Positions 30,159 through 63,935 of a stretch of DNA of 64,000 bases are shown in pieces. The position numbers were made by a program, and so were the translations under genes. Location of the stretch: NCBI GenBank assembly GCA_040881665.1, contig JBBECT010000004.1, positions 117,782 to 181,781 on the forward strand, written 5' to 3'. Under the pieces are notes generated by a model. The model worked only from the letters and a program-made list of their open reading frames with translations, did no database searches and was not told the origin of the DNA. Origin of the DNA: Actinomycetota bacterium (lineage in GTDB: Bacteria; Actinomycetota; UBA4738; HRBIN12). Each line of letters starts with the position of its first letter. Position 1 is the first letter of the stretch.

Positions 30159-31307
30159 ATGTTGGACCAGCATGACGACCGGATCCGCTACGACGAGGAC
30201 GACTGGACCCCCCGTCCCACGCTCGGCGCCGAGGACTACCGGAGCGAGGACATCTGGCAGGCCGAGCGCGAGAAGATCTGGTGGGGTGACTGGGTCTGCT
30301 TCGGCCGCAGCGAGGAGGTCGCCAACCCCGGCGACTACCTCGTCCGCGACCTCGCCGGCGAGTCGATCTTTATCGCCCGCAACCGCGAGGGAGTCCTGCA
30401 CGGCTTCTACAACGTGTGCAGCCACCGAGGGACGAAGTTCCTCGACGAGGGGTGCGGCGCGGTCAAGAAGGCCTTCAAGTGCCCCTACCACGCGTGGACC
30501 TACGATCTCGACGGGAACCTGATCGGCACGCCGAACGTGCAGGAGGACGAATCCTTCGACCGGTCGCGCTACCCGCTGCACGGCTTCGCGGTCGAGGAGT
30601 ACGCGGGGTTCCTGTGGGTCAGCCTCGCGGAGCAGCCGCGCCCGCTGATGGACGCGCTCACCCACGGCGCCGAATCGATCACCGCGTTCGAGCGCTTCAA
30701 GATGGAGGAGTTGCGGATCGGCGCGCGGATCGTTTACGAGGTCGCAGCGAACTGGAAGATCGTCGTCGAGAACTACAACGAGTGCCTCCACTGTCCCACC
30801 GTTCACCCCGAGCTCGTGCAGGTGGTTCCCCTGTTCCGCTTCGGCGAAGTGTGGGATGGCGAGACCCGCGACGATGGCAACTGGATGATGGAGGGCGCGA
30901 CCAGCTTCACCGCGACGGGCGAGAGCGCGTTGCCCAAGCTGCCGGACCTGCTCGAGGACGACTACAAGATGTACTACGGCTCCTACGAGTTCCCGAACCT
31001 GATGCTGAACCTGCACCCGGACTGCGTGATGTACTACATCGGCTATCCGACCGGACCCAACCACACGACGGTCGTGTCCGAGTTCCTGTTCCGCCCCGAG
31101 ACGATCGCCGACCCGAACTTCACGCCCGAGCCGGTCGTCGAGTTCTGGGACCTGATCTCCAAGCAGGACTGGGGCATCGTCGAGCGCGCACAGACCGGCG
31201 TCGGTTCGCGGGCGTTCAAGCAGGGCGTCTACCCGCGCCAGGACCGCTTCCTCTACAACTTCAACGAGGAGTGGCGCCAGGTGATGGGCCGGCAGCTCGG
31301 CGGCTAG
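30159..31307 (+). CDS. Rieske [2Fe-2S] non-heme iron oxygenase alpha subunit (GbcA/Stc2/CntA-like quaternary-amine demethylase/oxygenase family)
   Basis: Rieske motif CSHRGTKF...CPYHAW and a mononuclear-iron catalytic domain. GAGGAGG ribosome-binding site 8 nt upstream of ATG 30159. Confidence 0.85.
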   Translation: MLDQHDDRIRYDEDDWTPRPTLGAEDYRSEDIWQAEREKIWWGDWVCFGRSEEVANPGDYLVRDLAGESIFIARNREGVLHGFYNVCSHRGTKFLDEGCGAVKKAFKCPYHAWTYDLDGNLIGTPNVQEDESFDRSRYPLHGFAVEEYAGFLWVSLAEQPRPLMDALTHGAESITAFERFKMEELRIGARIVYEVAANWKIVVENYNECLHCPTVHPELVQVVPLFRFGEVWDGETRDDGNWMMEGATSFTATGESALPKLPDLLEDDYKMYYGSYEFPNLMLNLHPDCVMYYIGYPTGPNHTTVVSEFLFRPETIADPNFTPEPVVEFWDLISKQDWGIVERAQTGVGSRAFKQGVYPRQDRFLYNFNEEWRQVMGRQLGG

Positions 31308-31918
31308 GTTCCGGCGGCGCCGGGAGCCACGCCCAGCCGTTCCGAGGCGGCGCGCAAGCATACCGACACCGCGTGCGCCCGTGGGTAGCCGGGCATCCCC
31401 GCCGTGATCTGCACGGCGTAGCCGGTCACGAGCATCGAGACCCACTCGACGAAACCCTCGACGTCGACCTCGCGGAACGCGCCGACCCCGATCCCTTCCC
31501 GGACGATCGTCGCGAGCGCGGCGTTCCAGTGGGCGTCGCGCTCCTCGAGACGCGCGACGATCGACGGATCGTGGACCGCCCGCGCCCAGAGCTCTAGCCA
31601 CAGGGTCCATTGCTCGTCACCCGCCCCCACGGGCATCGAGAGCTCCAGGAACCGGGCCAACCGCGCGGGGGGGTCGGACGAGCGGTCGAGCTCGGCGGCC
31701 AGGGTCGCGTAGAACTGCGAGTCCTCGCTCCACCGAAGCGCCTCGAGGAGCAGCTCCTCCTTCGAGGAGAAGTAGTACATCACGTGCCCGGGGCTCATCC
31801 CGGCGCGGTCGGCGATGTCGGCGATCCGCGTCTCGGCGAAGCCTCGCTCAGCCATCGCGGCCGCAGCAGCGCGCAACACGCGCTCGCGCCGCTCCGGGTT
31901 GGTACCCCGGCTCTCCAC
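31304..31918 (-). CDS. TetR-family transcriptional regulator
   Basis: HTH region RERVLRAAAAAMAERGFAETRIADIADRAGMSPGHVMYYF. GTG start proposed at 31916-31918, 8 nt after the upstream ALDH stop. The track ORF's 5' extension to 32086 is Arg/Ser-rich and overlaps the ALDH. Confidence 0.7.
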   Translation of the reverse strand: MESRGTNPERRERVLRAAAAAMAERGFAETRIADIADRAGMSPGHVMYYFSSKEELLLEALRWSEDSQFYATLAAELDRSSDPPARLARFLELSMPVGAGDEQWTLWLELWARAVHDPSIVARLEERDAHWNAALATIVREGIGVGAFREVDVEGFVEWVSMLVTGYAVQITAGMPGYPRAHAVSVCLRAASERLGVAPGAAGT

Positions 31919-56366: not shown

Positions 56367-58873
56367 GCGATCGAGATCGTCTCGCCCGGCGCCGCGCCGT
56401 CGACGACCAGTTCCCCAGCCCGGATCTTCTCGGTGAGTTCGTCCGCGGGGATCGGACGCGAGAAGTAGTAACCCTGGCCGAGCTGGCAGCCCTGCCCCGC
56501 GAGGTACTGCCACTCATTCTCGGTCTCGATGCCTTCGGCGAGGGTTTTCATCCCCAGGCCCCGGCCGAGCTCGATCACGGCGGTCACGATGCTCGCCGCC
56601 TCTTGATCGCGGTGCACCGCGCTGACGAACGCGCGGTCGATCTTCAGCACGTCGATCGGCAGGAACCGGAGCCGCGACAACGAGGAGTATCCGGTTCCGA
56701 AGTCGTCCAGTGCCAGCGTGAGTCCGCGTGAATGCAACTCGCTGAGCACATAGAGCCAGCGGTCGAAGTCCTTGACCGCCGAGGACTCCGTGATCTCCAC
56801 GACGATCCGGCTCGGGTCCACCCCGCCCGCGTCGAGGCGGTCGAGGATGCGCGAGGAGATGTCGGGCTGCCACAACTGCCGAGGCGAGAGATTGAAGCCG
56901 ATCTCGAGCGGGATCTCAGCCTGCCGCCACACCGCGTCCTGCCGGGCGATCTCCTCGACGACCCAATCGCCGATCGTCTCGATCAGGCCGAGCTCTTCGG
57001 ACAGCGTGATGAAGTCGTTGGGGGGAACGAGGTTCCCGTCAGGCTCGCGCCAGCGCAGCAGCGCTTCGACCCCGATCATGCCGCCGCTGCCCAAGTCGAC
57101 CACCGGCTGGTAATGCAGTTCCCACTGCTCGTGCTCGACGGCCTTGCGCAGCCGCGTGACGAAGGAGAGCTTCGCGATCGAGTCGACACCCACGGACGAG
57201 GCGAGCACGTAGCCTCCGACGCCGCCCTTCTTCGCCTCGGCCATGGCCGCCTCCGCCCCGAGGAGGAGGTCCTTGCGCGTCGCCGCGTGCTGGGGGAACA
57301 AAGAGATCCCGAGGCTCGCCGAGAGGTAGAGCTCGGTGCCGGCGACGGTGAACGGCTCCCGGAGGGAGTCGTGGATCCGTCCCGCCACACCCTCGGCGGT
57401 GACGATGGCCGCATCGAGCTCGCCCATCTCCTCGGTCTCGAGGTCGGCGAGCAGCAGGAGGAACTGGTCCCCACTCATGCGTGCGACGAGATCGGTCTCC
57501 CGGGTCGCCTCCCGCAGACGTTCCGCCAGCTGCCCCAACACCTCGTCCCCCGCCTCGTGGCCGAGGGAATCGTTCACGAGCTTGAAGTCGTCGATGTCGA
57601 GGACGAGCACCGCGACCGAACCGTCGTGGCGCCCCGCCCGCGCCATCGCCAGATCGAGGAACTCGTCGAACATCGCACGGTTCGGCAGGCCGGTTCGCTC
57701 GTCGTGGTAGGCGAGGAAGGCCGCCTCCTCCTCCGCGTGCTTCTGTGCGGTGATGTCCTGCATGAAGCCCTGGGAGATCACCGGCGTGCCCCACTCGTCA
57801 TGGACGATCTTCGCGACGTCGCGAACCCAGACGACGCTGCCGTCCTTGTGGATCATCCGGTACTCGACGTCGAACACCTCACCCGTCGTGTTGTGACGGC
57901 TGTTCTCCGCGACGGCGCGATCGCGGTCGTCCGGGTGCAACACCTCGATCCACACGTCGTCGCTCGCGGTGAACTCTTCGACGGTGTAGCCGAGGAGCTC
58001 TTCGATCTGCGGGCTGATGTAGGCGGTCGTTGCCTCATCGTTGAGCTCGTCGGCGTAGGTGACCGCGGGGATGTTCTCCACGAGCGCCCGGTAGCGCGCC
58101 TCGGCGCTGCGCCGAGCGTCGTCGGCGACCTGGCGGCCGATCGCGGTGCCGAGGTGGGACGCCATCACGCGGAGCATGTCGAGTTCGACCTCGTCCCAGA
58201 CGCGTTCCCGGACGCAGTCGTCGAATCCCATGAAACCCCACCAGCGCTCGCCGGCGAAGATCGGAACGAAGCAGTAGGAGTGGATCCCCTCGCTGACCAT
58301 GTCCTCGCGCTCGTTGCCCGACACGCTCGACCGCCCTCGTTGGATGATCTCGCCGGCAGGCATCCGCTCGAGCCAGTCCGCGTAGCCGTCCTCGTAGGGC
58401 CAGTCGTGGTTGTCGGGGAGCGGCAGCGTGGCCGGGACCTGGTCCGCGCACCACTCGAAGCGCTGATCCATCAGGACGCGACCGTCGCCGTCGGTCCCGT
58501 TCTCGAACACGTAGGCGCGGCTGGCCTCCGCCGCGGTCCCGAGCTCGGCGAGCACGACTTCGATCGACCGCTCCCACGAGCCGCTGCGCAGGAAATGCTC
58601 CGTCGCGAACGAGACCGATTGCAGGATCGTCTCGCGGCGCTGCAGGACGCGCTGCTGCTCTCCGACGCGCCGTGCCATCACCAAGAGGTAGCCGAGGAAC
58701 AGCCCGGCCATCCCGAGCAGGGACGCCCGCAGGATCAGGGCCGCTGTGCTCGCCGCGGGCACGACGAGGAAGGCCGCCGCGACCGCGGCAGCGAACAGCG
58801 CGATGGCGACGGCCTCGGTCAAGCGCCGTGCGCCCGCGCGGGAACCCGCAGGATCTCGTTGTGCTCTCCCCAT
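56363..58873 (-). CDS. membrane-anchored GAF-PAS-GGDEF(degenerate)-EAL signalling protein, about 836 aa
   Basis: Two N-terminal transmembrane helices, then a GAF-like region, a PAS domain, a degenerate GGDEF-family domain (RMSGDQFLLL) and an intact EAL (EALLRWR). ATG at 58871-58873; the track ORF 5' extension to 59752 overlaps a + strand gene and is Arg/Gly-rich. Confidence 0.75.
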   Translation of the reverse strand: MGRAQRDPAGSRAGARRLTEAVAIALFAAAVAAAFLVVPAASTAALILRASLLGMAGLFLGYLLVMARRVGEQQRVLQRRETILQSVSFATEHFLRSGSWERSIEVVLAELGTAAEASRAYVFENGTDGDGRVLMDQRFEWCADQVPATLPLPDNHDWPYEDGYADWLERMPAGEIIQRGRSSVSGNEREDMVSEGIHSYCFVPIFAGERWWGFMGFDDCVRERVWDEVELDMLRVMASHLGTAIGRQVADDARRSAEARYRALVENIPAVTYADELNDEATTAYISPQIEELLGYTVEEFTASDDVWIEVLHPDDRDRAVAENSRHNTTGEVFDVEYRMIHKDGSVVWVRDVAKIVHDEWGTPVISQGFMQDITAQKHAEEEAAFLAYHDERTGLPNRAMFDEFLDLAMARAGRHDGSVAVLVLDIDDFKLVNDSLGHEAGDEVLGQLAERLREATRETDLVARMSGDQFLLLLADLETEEMGELDAAIVTAEGVAGRIHDSLREPFTVAGTELYLSASLGISLFPQHAATRKDLLLGAEAAMAEAKKGGVGGYVLASSVGVDSIAKLSFVTRLRKAVEHEQWELHYQPVVDLGSGGMIGVEALLRWREPDGNLVPPNDFITLSEELGLIETIGDWVVEEIARQDAVWRQAEIPLEIGFNLSPRQLWQPDISSRILDRLDAGGVDPSRIVVEITESSAVKDFDRWLYVLSELHSRGLTLALDDFGTGYSSLSRLRFLPIDVLKIDRAFVSAVHRDQEAASIVTAVIELGRGLGMKTLAEGIETENEWQYLAGQGCQLGQGYYFSRPIPADELTEKIRAGELVVDGAAPGETISIA

Positions 58874-58955
58874 ACCCTGGAGGGGGTATCGGGTGGTCGC
58901 GAGACCGACTGTAGGGGAGCGGCCGTGCCCACGTGGGTGGCGGATCGGCCGCTGG

Positions 58956-58961
58956 TAGGCT
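58956..58961 (+). promoter_or_regulatory. candidate -10 element TAGGCT (CTGGTAGGCTGAGG) 8 nt upstream of the ATG of the RGG-tail hypothetical gene, implying a leaderless transcript
   Basis: Recurring motif. Confidence 0.3.
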
Positions 58962-58969
58962 GAGGCGCC

Positions 58970-59428
58970 ATGGCCGACTATCGCCAAGTGATCCACGAGC
59001 GTCTGTACGTCAGGACACCGGGATCCGACAAGCTCCGCAAGACTGCCGAGGGGCGCCTCAAGCGCCTGGCCACCGACGGCTGGCGCGAGCTCGAGCGCTG
59101 GCAACGAGCCGACCACATCGAGGTCAAGCTCGAGCGGACCGGCGTGGTGCCGATGACGGCCCGACGGCCCCGCCCTGCCCCGGAGCAGAAGTTCGAGCGC
59201 AGGCGGGGTGGATTCGGTCGTGGCGGGTTCGGCGGCGGCGGTCGTGGCGGTGGAGGCGGTCGTGGCGGCGGGAACCGCGGGGGCGGACGAGGCGCCCCGC
59301 GCCAGACCGCACCTTCCCAGCAGGCGGCGCAGGCACCCGCGGCCACGCCCGAGACTCCGGCTCCCGCGGCCCCTGCTCCCGCTTCTCCCGCCGCGCCGGC
59401 TCCCGCGCCGGAACAGACCCCTTCCTGA
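58970..59428 (+). CDS. hypothetical protein with an Arg/Gly-rich (RGG-like) and Ala/Pro-rich disordered C-terminus, 152 aa
   Basis: ATG at 58970 lies 8 nt after a TAGGCT hexamer. The N-terminal 80 aa are globular-looking and the C-terminal GRGG repeats are low complexity. Confidence 0.5.
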   Translation: MADYRQVIHERLYVRTPGSDKLRKTAEGRLKRLATDGWRELERWQRADHIEVKLERTGVVPMTARRPRPAPEQKFERRRGGFGRGGFGGGGRGGGGGRGGGNRGGGRGAPRQTAPSQQAAQAPAATPETPAPAAPAPASPAAPAPAPEQTPS

Positions 59429-59654
59429 CCCGCGGCCACGACGGCCGCTCGATCCAGTCTCTTTAGCTCTCGTCGACCCGTTGACCCGGGGTTCGAGGAG
59501 CCGAACATCCTTCGGTCTGACGGGTTTCCGCACCAGATTCTTCCGGGTATCATGGGCTTTCCCGAACGTATCGACGATGTGCGGCCTGAACGACGAGTGA
59601 ACGCGGGGACCCAGCCGACCGAACGGCGATCGAGACCGGCGAGGAGGTCGAGTG

Positions 59655-61070
59655 ATGACCGAGCAGAGCCAGCACGACGCGACGACGGCGCGCCCCGGCC
59701 ATCGTGAGGCACGCGCCCATGCCGCGGAGCAACCCTTCGAGTACCCGCTCAAGCGTGCATACGTGGAGCCGGACTGGACCCGTCTCCCGGGCTACGCGGG
59801 CGTCACGAAGCAGCAATGGGAGGACGCCCAGTGGCAGCGCGCCCACACCGTGAAGAACCTCAAGCAGTTCAAGGACGCGCTCGGTGATCTGATCTCCGAC
59901 GACCTCATGGCCGATATCGAGCGTGACCAGGCCGAGCGCGCGACGATGTCGATGCTGATCCCGCCTCAGATGCTGAACACGATGGACACCGAGGACCTCT
60001 GGCGCGACCCGATCCGCCTGTACATGGCTCCGGCGCTCTCCGACCGCGACCAGGAATGGCCGAGCCACCCGATGTCCTCACGCGACTCGCTCCACGAAGC
60101 CGAGATGTGGGCGGTCGAGGGGCTCACGCACCGCTACCCCACGAAGGTGCTCGCGGAGCTGATCCCCACCTGTCCGCAGTACTGCGGACACTGCACCCGG
60201 ATGGATCTGGTCGGCAACGACACCCTCCAGGTGCTCAAGTACAAGTTCGAGATCAAGCAGAACGACCGTTGGGAGATGATGCTCGACTACCTGCGTAAGA
60301 CTCCCGTGGTCCGCGACGTCGTGGTGTCCGGCGGCGACATGGCGAACGTCCCGATCAAGCGGCTCGAGGATTTCGTGATGCAGCTGCTCGAGATCGAGAA
60401 CATCCGGGACATCCGCCTGGCCACGAAGGGCCTGATGGGGATCCCGCAGCACTTCCTCCAGGACGACGTGAAGGCGTCGGCCGAGCGGATGGCGACGCGG
60501 GCACGTGAGCGGGGCGTCGACATCGCCGTGCACACGCACGTGAACAATGCCCAGCAGGTGACACCGCTCGTCGGCGACGCGGCGAAGGTGTTCCTCAACG
60601 CCGGGTTCCGCGACGTGCGGAACCAGGGTGTGCTGCTCCGCGGTGTGAACACGACTCCCCAGCAGCTGCTCGAGCTGTGCTTCATGCTGCTGGATCACGC
60701 GAAGATCATGCCCTACTACTTCTACACCTGCGACATGATCCCCAACTCCGAGCACTGGCGAACCGCCGTCTGGGAGACGCAGGAGCTGCAGTTCGCGTTG
60801 CTCGGCTACCTGCCCGGGTTCGCGACGCCGCGCATGATCGTCGACGTCCCGTTCGTCGGGAAGCGCTGGACGCACATGCTCACCAACTACGACCGGACGA
60901 AGGGCATCTCGTACTGGAAGAAGAACTACCGCACGGGGATCGAGTACGACGACCCCGAGGCGCTCGAGCGCGAGTACCCCTACTACGACCCGGTCAACAC
61001 GCTGCCCGAGGAGGGAAAGCGATGGTGGCGTGAGCAGTCCGCGAGCGCTACCGAGCTGCAGCCCGTCTGA
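59655..61070 (+). CDS. lysine 2,3-aminomutase (KamA-family radical SAM enzyme)
   Basis: Radical SAM CxxxCxxC present as CPQYCGHCTR. Full KamA length (471 aa) rather than the shorter EpmB. GAGGAGG ribosome-binding site 7 nt upstream of ATG 59655. Confidence 0.85.
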   Translation: MTEQSQHDATTARPGHREARAHAAEQPFEYPLKRAYVEPDWTRLPGYAGVTKQQWEDAQWQRAHTVKNLKQFKDALGDLISDDLMADIERDQAERATMSMLIPPQMLNTMDTEDLWRDPIRLYMAPALSDRDQEWPSHPMSSRDSLHEAEMWAVEGLTHRYPTKVLAELIPTCPQYCGHCTRMDLVGNDTLQVLKYKFEIKQNDRWEMMLDYLRKTPVVRDVVVSGGDMANVPIKRLEDFVMQLLEIENIRDIRLATKGLMGIPQHFLQDDVKASAERMATRARERGVDIAVHTHVNNAQQVTPLVGDAAKVFLNAGFRDVRNQGVLLRGVNTTPQQLLELCFMLLDHAKIMPYYFYTCDMIPNSEHWRTAVWETQELQFALLGYLPGFATPRMIVDVPFVGKRWTHMLTNYDRTKGISYWKKNYRTGIEYDDPEALEREYPYYDPVNTLPEEGKRWWREQSASATELQPV

Positions 61071-62439: not shown

Positions 62440-63303
62440 GTGAGCCGCCCGGTAACCTTCGCGAGCCTCCAGCTCCGACCCATACCGTTCGACGTCGAAG
62501 CGACCGTCGACAAGCTGGAGCGCGAGGCGCGGCGGCTCGTGGCCTCGTTCCCCCAGATCGATCTGCTGCTGTTCCCGGAGCTGTACCCGACAGGGGAGGA
62601 CCCGTTCGGCCCGGGGGAACCTCCGGGGTTCACCGAGCGGGTCGCCGAGCCGGTTCCGGGGCCCCTGAGCGAGCGTCTGGGCCGGCTTGCCGCCGGCATC
62701 GGCCGCTATCTGGTCCCCGGGTCGGTCCTCGAGCGGGGAACGAGCGGAGCGATCCACAACACCGCGATCGTCCTGGGACCCGACGGCCGGCTCCTGACCT
62801 CGTACCGGAAGCTGTTCCCGTGGCGCCCCCACGAACGAACGGTACCCGGCGACGGAACCGGGCGCGTGATCGACCTTCCCGGGCTCGGCCGTGTCGGCCT
62901 GCTGATCTGCTACGACGGGTGGTTCCCGGAGGTCGCGCGCGGACTCGCGCTCGACGGAGCGGAGGTGCTCCTGCAGCCCACGCTCACGACGACGGCAGAT
63001 CGTGAGGAGGAGATCGTGCTCGCGCGGGCGAACGCGATCGTGAACCAGTGCTACGTGGTGAACGTCAACGCCCTGGGCTCGCGCGGAGGGGGGCGCAGCG
63101 TCACCGTCGATCCGGACGGGCACGTGCTGACCGAGCTCGGCACGCAGGAGACGTTCTCGATCGACGTCGTGGACCTCGATCGGGTCGCGCAGGTACGGGA
63201 ACGCGGACTCCGCGGGGTCTCGCGACCCTGGCGACAGCTGCTGGACGAAGCTCCGGCGGCCGCCTTCGAGCCCTATCGCCGGTTCCTGTCCTCCGCGCCC
63301 TGA
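62440..63303 (+). CDS. carbon-nitrogen hydrolase (nitrilase/amidase superfamily)
   Basis: E-K-C triad context with catalytic Cys in LLICYDGWFPE. Start codon at the track start, possibly GTG one base off. Confidence 0.8.
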   Translation: MSRPVTFASLQLRPIPFDVEATVDKLEREARRLVASFPQIDLLLFPELYPTGEDPFGPGEPPGFTERVAEPVPGPLSERLGRLAAGIGRYLVPGSVLERGTSGAIHNTAIVLGPDGRLLTSYRKLFPWRPHERTVPGDGTGRVIDLPGLGRVGLLICYDGWFPEVARGLALDGAEVLLQPTLTTTADREEEIVLARANAIVNQCYVVNVNALGSRGGGRSVTVDPDGHVLTELGTQETFSIDVVDLDRVAQVRERGLRGVSRPWRQLLDEAPAAAFEPYRRFLSSAP

Positions 63304-63935
63304 CCTCCCTCGCCCGGGACGAGCCGATCGTAGAGCGCGGTGAGGATCCTGTCGGTGGGGAGCTCGGGATCGAACACCTGCTGCTGCACGAGCCCGTCGG
63401 CGGCGGTCGCGAACGCGTCCCCGAGCGCGTGGGCGTCGAACGTCTGCGCTCGCTCGTCGCCGAGCTGACGGAACAGGACCGTGAACGGGGCGCGCCACCG
63501 CGCGTACTCGGCGGCGACCCGCTCGCGGATCCGGTCGTCGTCCAGCGCAGAGACGTAGAGGCCCAGGTGCACCCGCAGGGTGTCCCGGGTCGCGGGCTGG
63601 GCGATCCAATCGATCACCGCACGCATCCGCTCGTCGGCGGTTCCCGGACCGTCGACGAGCTCCTCCAGTGGCTCGACCCAGTCGCGCCGCGCGTGGACGA
63701 CGAGGGCGAGGATCAGGTCGCGTTTGTCGTGGAAGTGGTAGTGCACCATCCCGTGGGAGACCTCGGCGATCCCGGCGACCCGTCGTGTCGTGAACCCGGC
63801 GATGCCCTGCTCCGCGAGCACTCGGCGCGCGGCGTCGAGGATCCGCCCGCGGGTTCGCGACGCGCGAGCGGCACGTGCCGTGGTCGTCTCCGATCCGGGG
63901 TCGGGAGCGGGTCGTTCCGTTCGTTCACGCGCCAT
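63273..63935 (-). CDS. TetR-family transcriptional regulator
   Basis: HTH region RGRILDAARRVLAEQGIAGFTTRRVAGIAEVSHGMVHYHF. Its stop region overlaps the convergent hydrolase 3' end by about 30 nt. Confidence 0.75.
   Translation of the reverse strand: MARERTERPAPDPGSETTTARAARASRTRGRILDAARRVLAEQGIAGFTTRRVAGIAEVSHGMVHYHFHDKRDLILALVVHARRDWVEPLEELVDGPGTADERMRAVIDWIAQPATRDTLRVHLGLYVSALDDDRIRERVAAEYARWRAPFTVLFRQLGDERAQTFDAHALGDAFATAADGLVQQQVFDPELPTDRILTALYDRLVPGEGGQGAEDRNRR

Follow-up and report, generated by a model that had tools for sequence, protein, structure and literature searches.

We have analyzed a window of 64 kb (the whole stretch of contig JBBECT010000004.1 of an Actinomycetota bacterium that is studied here) and, inside it, two genes that run in the same direction. 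The first codes for a small orphan protein and the second for an aminomutase of the KamA family, that is, of the type that depends on radical S-adenosylmethionine (radical-SAM) and pyridoxal phosphate (PLP). They are separated by a spacer of 226 nt (59429-59654), which the first-pass annotation had taken for a cis-regulatory RNA such as a riboswitch or an attenuator. The comparison with related genomes indicates that the spacer is indeed a conserved regulatory region in which the CCGAAC repeats matter, but the RNA part of the proposal found no support. As judged from these sequence comparisons, the spacer is likely to be a promoter of the KamA-like gene overlaid by phased palindromic operators of the Lrp/AsnC type.

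The two open reading frames (ORFs), the ribosome-binding site and both copies of CCGAAC(A/G)T described before are real. Both genes were called identically in a near-identical NCBI assembly, and an identical record of the 471-aa protein exists from an Actinomycetota metagenome-assembled genome (MAG) at NCBI. There is an in-frame alternative start (GTG) of the KamA-like ORF at 59652, and the ribosome-binding-site sequence GGAGGTG is conserved in the relatives. The statement that the spacer is markedly less GC-rich than its surroundings was overstated. Its GC content is 64.2%, versus a mean of 69.2% for the window, 65.2% for the KamA-like coding sequence and 74.3% for the small gene, and the remaining intergenic gaps of the window go from 57% to 82%, so that the dip is an ordinary one. 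Neither is the octamer CCGAACRT rare, with 11 copies observed in the window and 6.0 ± 2.4 expected. Its meaning comes only from comparison, in which the first copy of the spacer (CCGAACAT, starting at 59501) is the left half of a box, E1, found at 77 loci, and the second one (CCGAACGT, starting at 59562) is the left half of a box-like element, E3.

For this comparison the species-level genomes of GTDB were scanned with the enzyme. More than 589 relatives were found, and the best 80 were retained (74–87% identity to the KamA-like protein), nearly all of them titled as MAGs of uncultured Actinomycetota or Actinomycetes. The alignment of upstream regions used for RNA structure and for the counts of boxes and -10 hexamers comprises 77 of the 80 orthologous loci. 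Boxes were scored with a position weight matrix (PWM) built from the arms of E1, at a threshold of at least 8 bits, and the flanks of the 80 loci that were searched add up to 921 kb.

Palindromic boxes and a predicted promoter in the spacer

E1 has the consensus CCGRA-N5-TYCGG and is present in 77 of the 80 loci (Table 1 gives the version of the window, which contains the first octamer). Actually, it is better read as a 6-3-6 arrangement whose centre is ATC in 64 of the 77 loci. Another 6 loci have GAT there, and at least four of them carry a box that corresponds, over its whole length, to a common variant read on the opposite strand. A second box, E2, is found 31 bp after E1 in nearly all the loci, with its arms conserved and its spacer free to change. 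At this position (+31) the threshold was reached in 52% of the loci, against a background of 2e-4. Both the reverse-complemented E1 boxes and the E2 arms that are kept while the spacer varies are as expected of a symmetric DNA site. In the window itself E2 is degenerate, with an intact right arm (TCCGG), two matches out of five in the left arm and a PWM score of -14. The same box is degenerate in the relative L001 as well, and this decay may reflect regulatory drift. Finally, E3 holds a good left half-site that includes the second octamer, and it is a near-match to the E1 variant CCGAACGGATCGACG of the loci L211-L213. As a third full palindrome it was rejected, since the PWM gave it no support across the loci, and we keep it as a half-site or variant box.

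Downstream of E1 we found a hexamer TANNNT, located 47 ± 1 nt from the start of the box in 75 of the 77 loci and 52 nt from it in the other two. The versions TATCAT (31 loci), TATCCT (13) and TATGAT (11) are the most frequent. The first T and the A are conserved in at least 90% of the sequences, the last T is invariant and positions 3 to 5 vary, usually with a G before the hexamer and GG after it. Such a distribution of information, with T1, A2 and T6 conserved and a variable middle, is characteristic of -10 elements of the sigma-70 type, and the hexamer resembles the actinobacterial -10 consensus, gnTAnnnTgg. At the -35 offset the alignment conserves a TT, within a weak TTnnnn only, and a simple promoter scan of the leader (E. 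coli-type) found nothing, as expected from such a weak -35. We predict from this pattern that the KamA-like gene has a sigma-A-type promoter of its own in the spacer, with a -10 of the common form and a weak -35. The centre of E1 would then be ~52 bp upstream of the start of transcription. Being located upstream of the promoter and across it, the boxes would therefore not be part of the KamA-like gene's own transcript.

Two other assignments were tried and rejected. The LexA/SOS (Cheo) box has CGAAC in common with the elements found here, but the arms are CCGAA and TTCGG around N5 and not GAAC-N4-GTTC; an SOS-like E3 appears in few loci only. Reading the boxes as -35 and -10 elements of an extracytoplasmic function (ECF) sigma factor was discarded because the spacing does not fit.

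The position of E1 among the relatives tells which of the two genes it serves. In loci without the small gene (L069, L070, L075) it is found ~90–220 nt upstream of the KamA-like start, and it is also kept where the small gene and the enzyme gene have a cold-shock gene between them on the opposite strand (e.g., L013, L014, L032, L037, L051). E1 therefore belongs to the KamA-like gene. Where both genes adjoin, the box starts 0–92 nt past the stop of the small gene, and in 12 loci the distance is only 0–9 nt, leaving no space for a promoter upstream of E1. The window has three other copies of the box, all intragenic and none intergenic. Similarly, outside the module the palindrome was found nine times in the flanks of the 80 loci, always inside genes, so that no local regulon is visible.

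Table 1. Features of the spacer and its two genes in the window, and regions with the two-box pattern in other contigs.
Feature	Position	Strand	Remarks
Extended -10 of the small gene, TGGTAGGCT	58954-58962	+	ends 7 nt ahead of the ATG; no Shine-Dalgarno
Small orphan protein gene	58970-59428	+	ORF, 152 aa
GC hairpin GCGGCC-ACGAC-GGCCGC	59432-59448	+	3 nt past the small-gene stop; seen in the minimum free energy structure
Box E1, CCGAACATCCTTCGG	59501-59515		perfect 15-bp palindrome; PWM score 20.6
Weak -35-like hexamer TTCCGC	59526-59531	+	predicted; 16-nt spacer to the -10
Box E2 position, ACCAGATTCTTCCGG	59532-59546		31 bp after E1, in the -35/-10 spacer
-10 hexamer TATCAT	59548-59553	+	G before, GG after
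Start of transcription	~59560	+	predicted
5' untranslated region, ~95 nt	59560-59654	+	predicted from the -10
Box-like element E3, CCGAACGTATCGACG	59562-59576		~+3 to +17, 61 bp after E1
Ribosome-binding site GAGGAGG	59641-59647	+	7 nt ahead of the KamA-like ATG
KamA-family radical-SAM/PLP aminomutase gene	59655-61070	+	ORF, 471 aa
lrp-kdd-kamA region with two-box pattern	L150 3490-6465; L161 5977-8943; L146 2-259		

Lrp/AsnC proteins as candidate regulators

Proteins of the Lrp/AsnC group, also known as feast/famine proteins, recognise palindromic sites that can be written abcdeWWWedcba, and the optimum for FL11 of Pyrococcus, a lysine sensor, is CCGAAA[AAT/ATT]TTTCGG (PMC2715240). Between neighbouring Lrp sites, which share one face of the DNA, there are two or three helical turns, and the DNA is often wrapped (PMC2995911). 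E1 and E2 agree with these operators in both respects, the palindromic form of 13–15 bp and the three-turn phasing over the promoter. Like in the case of FL11 and other feast/famine operators, we have a 15-bp palindrome with CCGAA/TTCGG arms and a short centre, and several sites on one helix face, three turns apart, that overlap a promoter; lysine or another amino acid is a plausible effector here too. There are also differences. The host is a bacterium (Actinomycetota) and not an archaeon, the centre of the box is ATC or GAT instead of pure A/T, the sites are predicted ones and no regulator gene was found near the target in this genome.

When metagenome contigs were searched for the two boxes alone as a pattern, 120 stretches were obtained. 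About 22 of them were KamA-like loci of the same type as the window, and most of the remaining stretches were unrelated repeats or coding repeats. An Lrp/AsnC gene was present in six (L103, L137, L146, L150, L161 and L162), and in all four that were inspected (L146, L150, L161 and L162) this gene directly adjoins the boxes. In L162 an orthologue of the KamA-like gene (75% identical) is divergent from the Lrp/AsnC gene and both boxes are located in the ~200-nt spacer between them, with the order box, 16 nt, box, 5 nt, TAGGCT in the orientation of the enzyme. The Lrp protein of L162 has thousands of close homologues. The genes of the six that were sampled (74–88% identical) are all divergent beside a KamA-like gene, and all six contexts have an E1-like box, a gap of 16–17 nt, a second box 31–32 nt on and a TANNNT 47–52 nt from E1. 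In five of these contexts the KamA-like gene is 73–77% identical to that of the window. In the other one, L201, it is fragmented: KamA-like matches are found between 2400 and 3850 only in pieces and in different frames, due either to a pseudogene or to a frameshift-rich long-read assembly.

The pattern extends to an unrelated lineage with ~60% GC (L150 and L161), in which the pair of boxes precedes an lrp-kdd-kamA operon of lysine fermentation. Here the lrp product has the Pfam domains HTH_AsnC and AsnC_trans_reg, kdd codes for a 3,5-diaminohexanoate dehydrogenase (score above the cutoff) and the KamA-family gene is above the cutoff of TIGR00238. The link to Lrp, together with this operon in another lineage, points to amino-acid (lysine) catabolism rather than to osmolyte synthesis.

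The arrangement of the sister lineages recalls that of LrpA (Rv3291c) in Mycobacterium tuberculosis, whose gene we take to be paired divergently with lat: an Lrp gene divergent from the gene of an amino-acid-converting enzyme, with the operators in the shared spacer. The target is different, a radical-SAM aminomutase instead of an aminotransferase, and in the lineage of the window the pair has been split, the gene upstream of the target now being a small, unrelated one. In published work M. tuberculosis LrpA (Rv3291c) is described as an Lrp regulator with amino-acid ligands (PMC2175373).

The form of the boxes, their phasing and the sister loci suggest that they are very probably Lrp/AsnC operators. 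Three observations weigh against this assignment. First, the searches, tblastn of the window and the loci among them, found no gene of the Lrp/AsnC type anywhere in the 64 kb, in the ±6 kb around each of the 80 loci or in the 10 kb that follow the window on its right side, so that the regulator is hypothetical for this genome. Second, the window has only one good box, E1, the left arm of E2 having been lost and E3 being a half-site. Third, at the R/Y positions the combinations G..T outnumber A..C, by 13:4 in E1 and by 27:4 in E2. Such an excess would be tolerable to RNA pairing; alternatively, it could derive from a half-site preference or from shared ancestry.

The mechanism that we propose is the following. 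Dimers of the regulator, which probably join into a higher oligomer with the DNA wrapped around it, would occupy sites on the same face: E1 upstream of the promoter, E2 three helical turns on, in the spacer between -35 and -10, and perhaps the half-site-like E3 just past the start of transcription. An amino acid would be the effector that switches the transcription of the aminomutase gene, lysine or another basic amino acid related to it being the most plausible candidates, with the regulator acting either as a repressor or as an activator. The gene for the regulator, if retained, would be encoded elsewhere in the genome and not beside its target, and the upstream neighbour would be just an unrelated small protein with a tail rich in RG and a leaderless promoter of its own. 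What is gained is a testable regulatory model that specifies the consensus of the box, its phasing, its position on the promoter and a candidate family of regulators. Regulation of this kind is ordinary and contains nothing surprising to the specialist.

Two other sets of paired elements were noticed. Box pairs with an AT centre (CCGAATATAATTCGG ...) adjoin other Lrp/AsnC genes in L103 (188-773) and L137 (1977-2615), as would be expected if other bacteria used sites of this geometry for autoregulation. Besides, near-identical paired palindromes (CCGGATGCAATCCGGG ... CCCGGATTGCATCCGGGCTAC) were found in the unrelated metagenome contigs L082, L097, L105, L109, L122, L174, L197 and L199, and resemble repetitive extragenic elements of a single family.

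Other readings of the spacer and the small upstream gene

The small protein has a conserved N-terminal domain of ~75 aa (predicted beta-alpha-beta-beta) followed by a disordered tail. The RG-repeat tail that had been noticed in the 152-aa protein is present, with RG-rich residues from ~78 to 108 and then a P/A-rich part, and it is partly encoded by short tandem repeats. The usual length of the protein is 90–101 aa with a short RG end, and expanded RG and P/A tails were found in the window, L001, L036 and L080. The RG tail has ~15 aa normally, and in the expanded versions (window 59200-59425; L001 5296-5760; L036 5419-5823; L080 1506-1988) the RGG plus P/A-rich sequence reaches 60–75 aa. The expansion took place on three or more separate branches, and in the window tandem repeats of 9 and 24 nt account for a part of it. 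No Pfam or NCBIfam family matched the small protein and, where it has a name at all, it is hypothetical protein, one stray label apart. The family is narrow: a profile search among 1.84 billion representatives gave 62 clusters at 50% identity and no informative fusions. A TGnTAnnnT motif, a -10 of the style seen ahead of the KamA-like gene, is conserved 8–9 nt ahead of the ATG in nearly all of ~70 loci, and the proximity of this -10 to the ATG, together with the lack of a Shine-Dalgarno, predicts a leaderless mRNA, from which the small protein is probably translated.

We have considered that the boxes could be bound by a factor other than Lrp, for example by this small protein, if it binds DNA or RNA and regulates the gene next to it. 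Its gene is found directly upstream and on the same strand in 74 of the 80 loci while the outer neighbours change, and the basic tail suggests, by resemblance, affinity for nucleic acids. However, the boxes and the layout of the promoter are kept in the Lrp-adjacent sister loci (L162, L201-L213), where the small gene is absent and the Lrp gene is found instead; the small protein is therefore not needed for the module of boxes and promoter. The boxes are also there in the three loci without the small gene mentioned above, the protein has no recognisable DNA-binding fold, and no copy of the box precedes the small gene itself. A regulator different from Lrp seems to us improbable.

Smaller still is the probability that we give to a cis-regulatory RNA (riboswitch, attenuator or thermosensor) acting after transcription has started. 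The spacer is conserved in length (~140–220 nt) and partly in sequence across the loci, E1 is able to fold into a hairpin of 6 bp, two pairs of which show some A-U/G-C exchanges, and the semi-conserved stretch of E3 would fall within the 5' untranslated region (5'UTR). Besides, a lysine riboswitch (L-box) or another amino-acid riboswitch would likewise be a conserved element upstream of a gene of lysine metabolism. The searches for structure, though, were negative. A cmscan search of 58800-59800 against Rfam at E ≤ 10 gave no match, only three chance-level hits far under the gathering scores. The minimum free energy of the leader was -95.5 kcal/mol, versus -95.9 ± 5.3 for dinucleotide shuffles (z = 0.07), which leaves the potential stem-forming segments of the first-pass annotation without support. 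RNAalifold on the 77 upstream regions returned a single hairpin, the 6 bp of E1, with a consensus folding energy of ~-6 kcal/mol and a negligible covariation term of -0.29 kcal/mol. When a structure with both palindromes as hairpins and E1 extended was supplied, the paired cells were 74.4%, against 73.0% after shuffling. The extended 9-bp stem of E1 was itself rejected, as its outer three pairs are unpaired in 40–54 of the 77 sequences.

The predicted 5'UTRs (71 of them, 44–134 nt long) vary in sequence and length among the relatives, and folding them against shuffles found no conserved structure (mean z of -0.09, n = 71). The predicted pairing partner of the Shine-Dalgarno is not consistent from one locus to another, and in the window the Shine-Dalgarno is mostly unpaired (pairing probability of 0.21). 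A third copy of CCGAAC, CCGAACGG, is found at 59619-59626, upstream of the ribosome-binding site and within a segment of 30 nt (59603-59632) that is 70% complementary to 59502-59531; for these two segments to pair, E1 would have to be transcribed. The conserved block is located upstream of the -10 and over it and not within the predicted 5'UTR, and the 12 loci in which E1 begins so close to the preceding stop have no space for a promoter ahead of it. Moreover, in E2 what would be the stem is conserved in sequence and what would be the loop is variable, the reverse of the usual pattern of RNA. Contrary to the L-box, no multi-helix structure is conserved here, and the conserved part is promoter DNA. 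A false riboswitch candidate is thus removed.

Equally hard to believe is that E1 serves mainly the small gene, as its terminator or as a hairpin stabilising the 3' end, with an unregulated promoter making up the remainder of the spacer. In its favour, the box is found shortly past the small-gene stop where the genes adjoin, and a T and a short run rich in T often come after it. However, the stem has only 6 bp with the low folding energy given above, and the terminator scan of the leader was empty. E1 also stays in loci that lack the upstream gene or have in its place a cold-shock gene on the opposite strand or a divergent lrp, and its second copy at a fixed distance of 31 bp would be left unexplained. 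Just past the same stop codon the window has another hairpin (59432-59448), possibly a weak terminator or a stabiliser, which the alignment of the relatives lacks and which is hence not conserved.

The enzyme and its neighbours

The target of the boxes is a highly conserved aminomutase gene, shared by 80 genomes of abundant uncultured soil Actinomycetota at 74–87% identity. The similarity behind its automatic label, lysine 2,3-aminomutase, is below threshold. Among the NCBIfam models, the nearest AblA/KamA equivalog (TIGR03820) scored 185 bits versus a cutoff of 525.4, and the general KamA-family model (TIGR00238) 164.3 versus 199.2 bits; the protein is also under the cutoffs of the arginine, glutamate and EpmB equivalogs. 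In Pfam the 471-aa protein had no match. The only solved homologue is the KamA of Clostridium subterminale (PDB 2A5H, E 2.9e-39, ~30% identity). The motif C-P-Q-Y-C-G-H-C-T-R aligns with C125/C129/C132/R134 of this structure (CxxxCxxC and Arg134), Asp360 and Asp397 align with its Asp293 and Asp330, and Lys403 is one residue away from the column of K337. In 2A5H we take Arg134 to bind the carboxylate, Lys337 to be the PLP lysine, Asp293 and Asp330 to hold the epsilon-amino group of lysine, and Cys268 with C-terminal cysteines to form a zinc site between subunits. This last site was not found in our protein, which has a Thr in the column of Cys268 and no cysteine in its C-terminal ~60 aa (residues 413-471). 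It also differs from 2A5H by a ~45-aa N-terminal extension and an insertion of 8 residues after the cluster motif.

From the alignment, the protein belongs to the KamA family as a member of an uncharacterised subfamily. The agreement in the cluster motif, Arg134, the two Asp residues and the nearby Lys makes a basic amino acid a plausible substrate. With the lysine-binding Asp residues conserved, the name lysine 2,3-aminomutase is plausible, but with a score below every curated cutoff it is unverified. In the literature we found nothing specific on this KamA clade in Actinobacteria. A bolder possibility, which we judge unlikely, is that the enzyme is the founder of an uncharacterised subfamily of radical-SAM/PLP aminomutases, widespread in soil Actinomycetota, without the zinc site, with a new C-terminal domain and with a substrate or role other than those of the 2,3-aminomutases known for lysine, arginine and glutamate. 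A dedicated Lrp would control it, and the RG-tail protein might be its partner, for example as a modified target or as a nucleic-acid-binding cofactor.

It had also been suggested that the enzyme may feed the synthesis of the osmolyte N-acetyl-beta-lysine, although no acetyltransferase was adjacent. The second part is right, as no GNAT or other acetyltransferase gene adjoins the KamA-like gene in the window, and the link to the osmolyte was not sustained by the comparison, an ablB-like acetyltransferase not being recurrent in the 80 loci. Neither a lysine 5,6-aminomutase nor an EF-P gene was among the recurrent neighbours of these loci. The resemblance to ablA-ablB is that of a KamA-family enzyme that could make beta-lysine. 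It differs from that pair in having no acetyltransferase beside it, in the window or among the recurrent neighbours, and in its score, far under the AblA equivalog cutoff.

The genes that do recur around the 80 loci are functionally unrelated (DEAD-box helicase, transketolase-like, GGDEF-EAL, phosphoesterase, sulfatase and molybdenum-cofactor genes), the DEAD-box helicase gene being located further upstream. In seven loci (L007, L013, L014, L032, L037, L051 and L061) a CspA-type cold-shock gene coding for 67 aa is found on the opposite strand beside the KamA-like gene (e.g., L032 5472-5675, minus strand), and in six of them it separates the KamA-like gene from the small one. Finally, the window contains two TetR regulators with a BetI-type C-terminal domain, both on the minus strand (31304-31918 and 63273-63935), and the second, just downstream of the aminomutase gene, adjoins genes for a carbon-nitrogen hydrolase and a PotD-like polyamine-binding protein.

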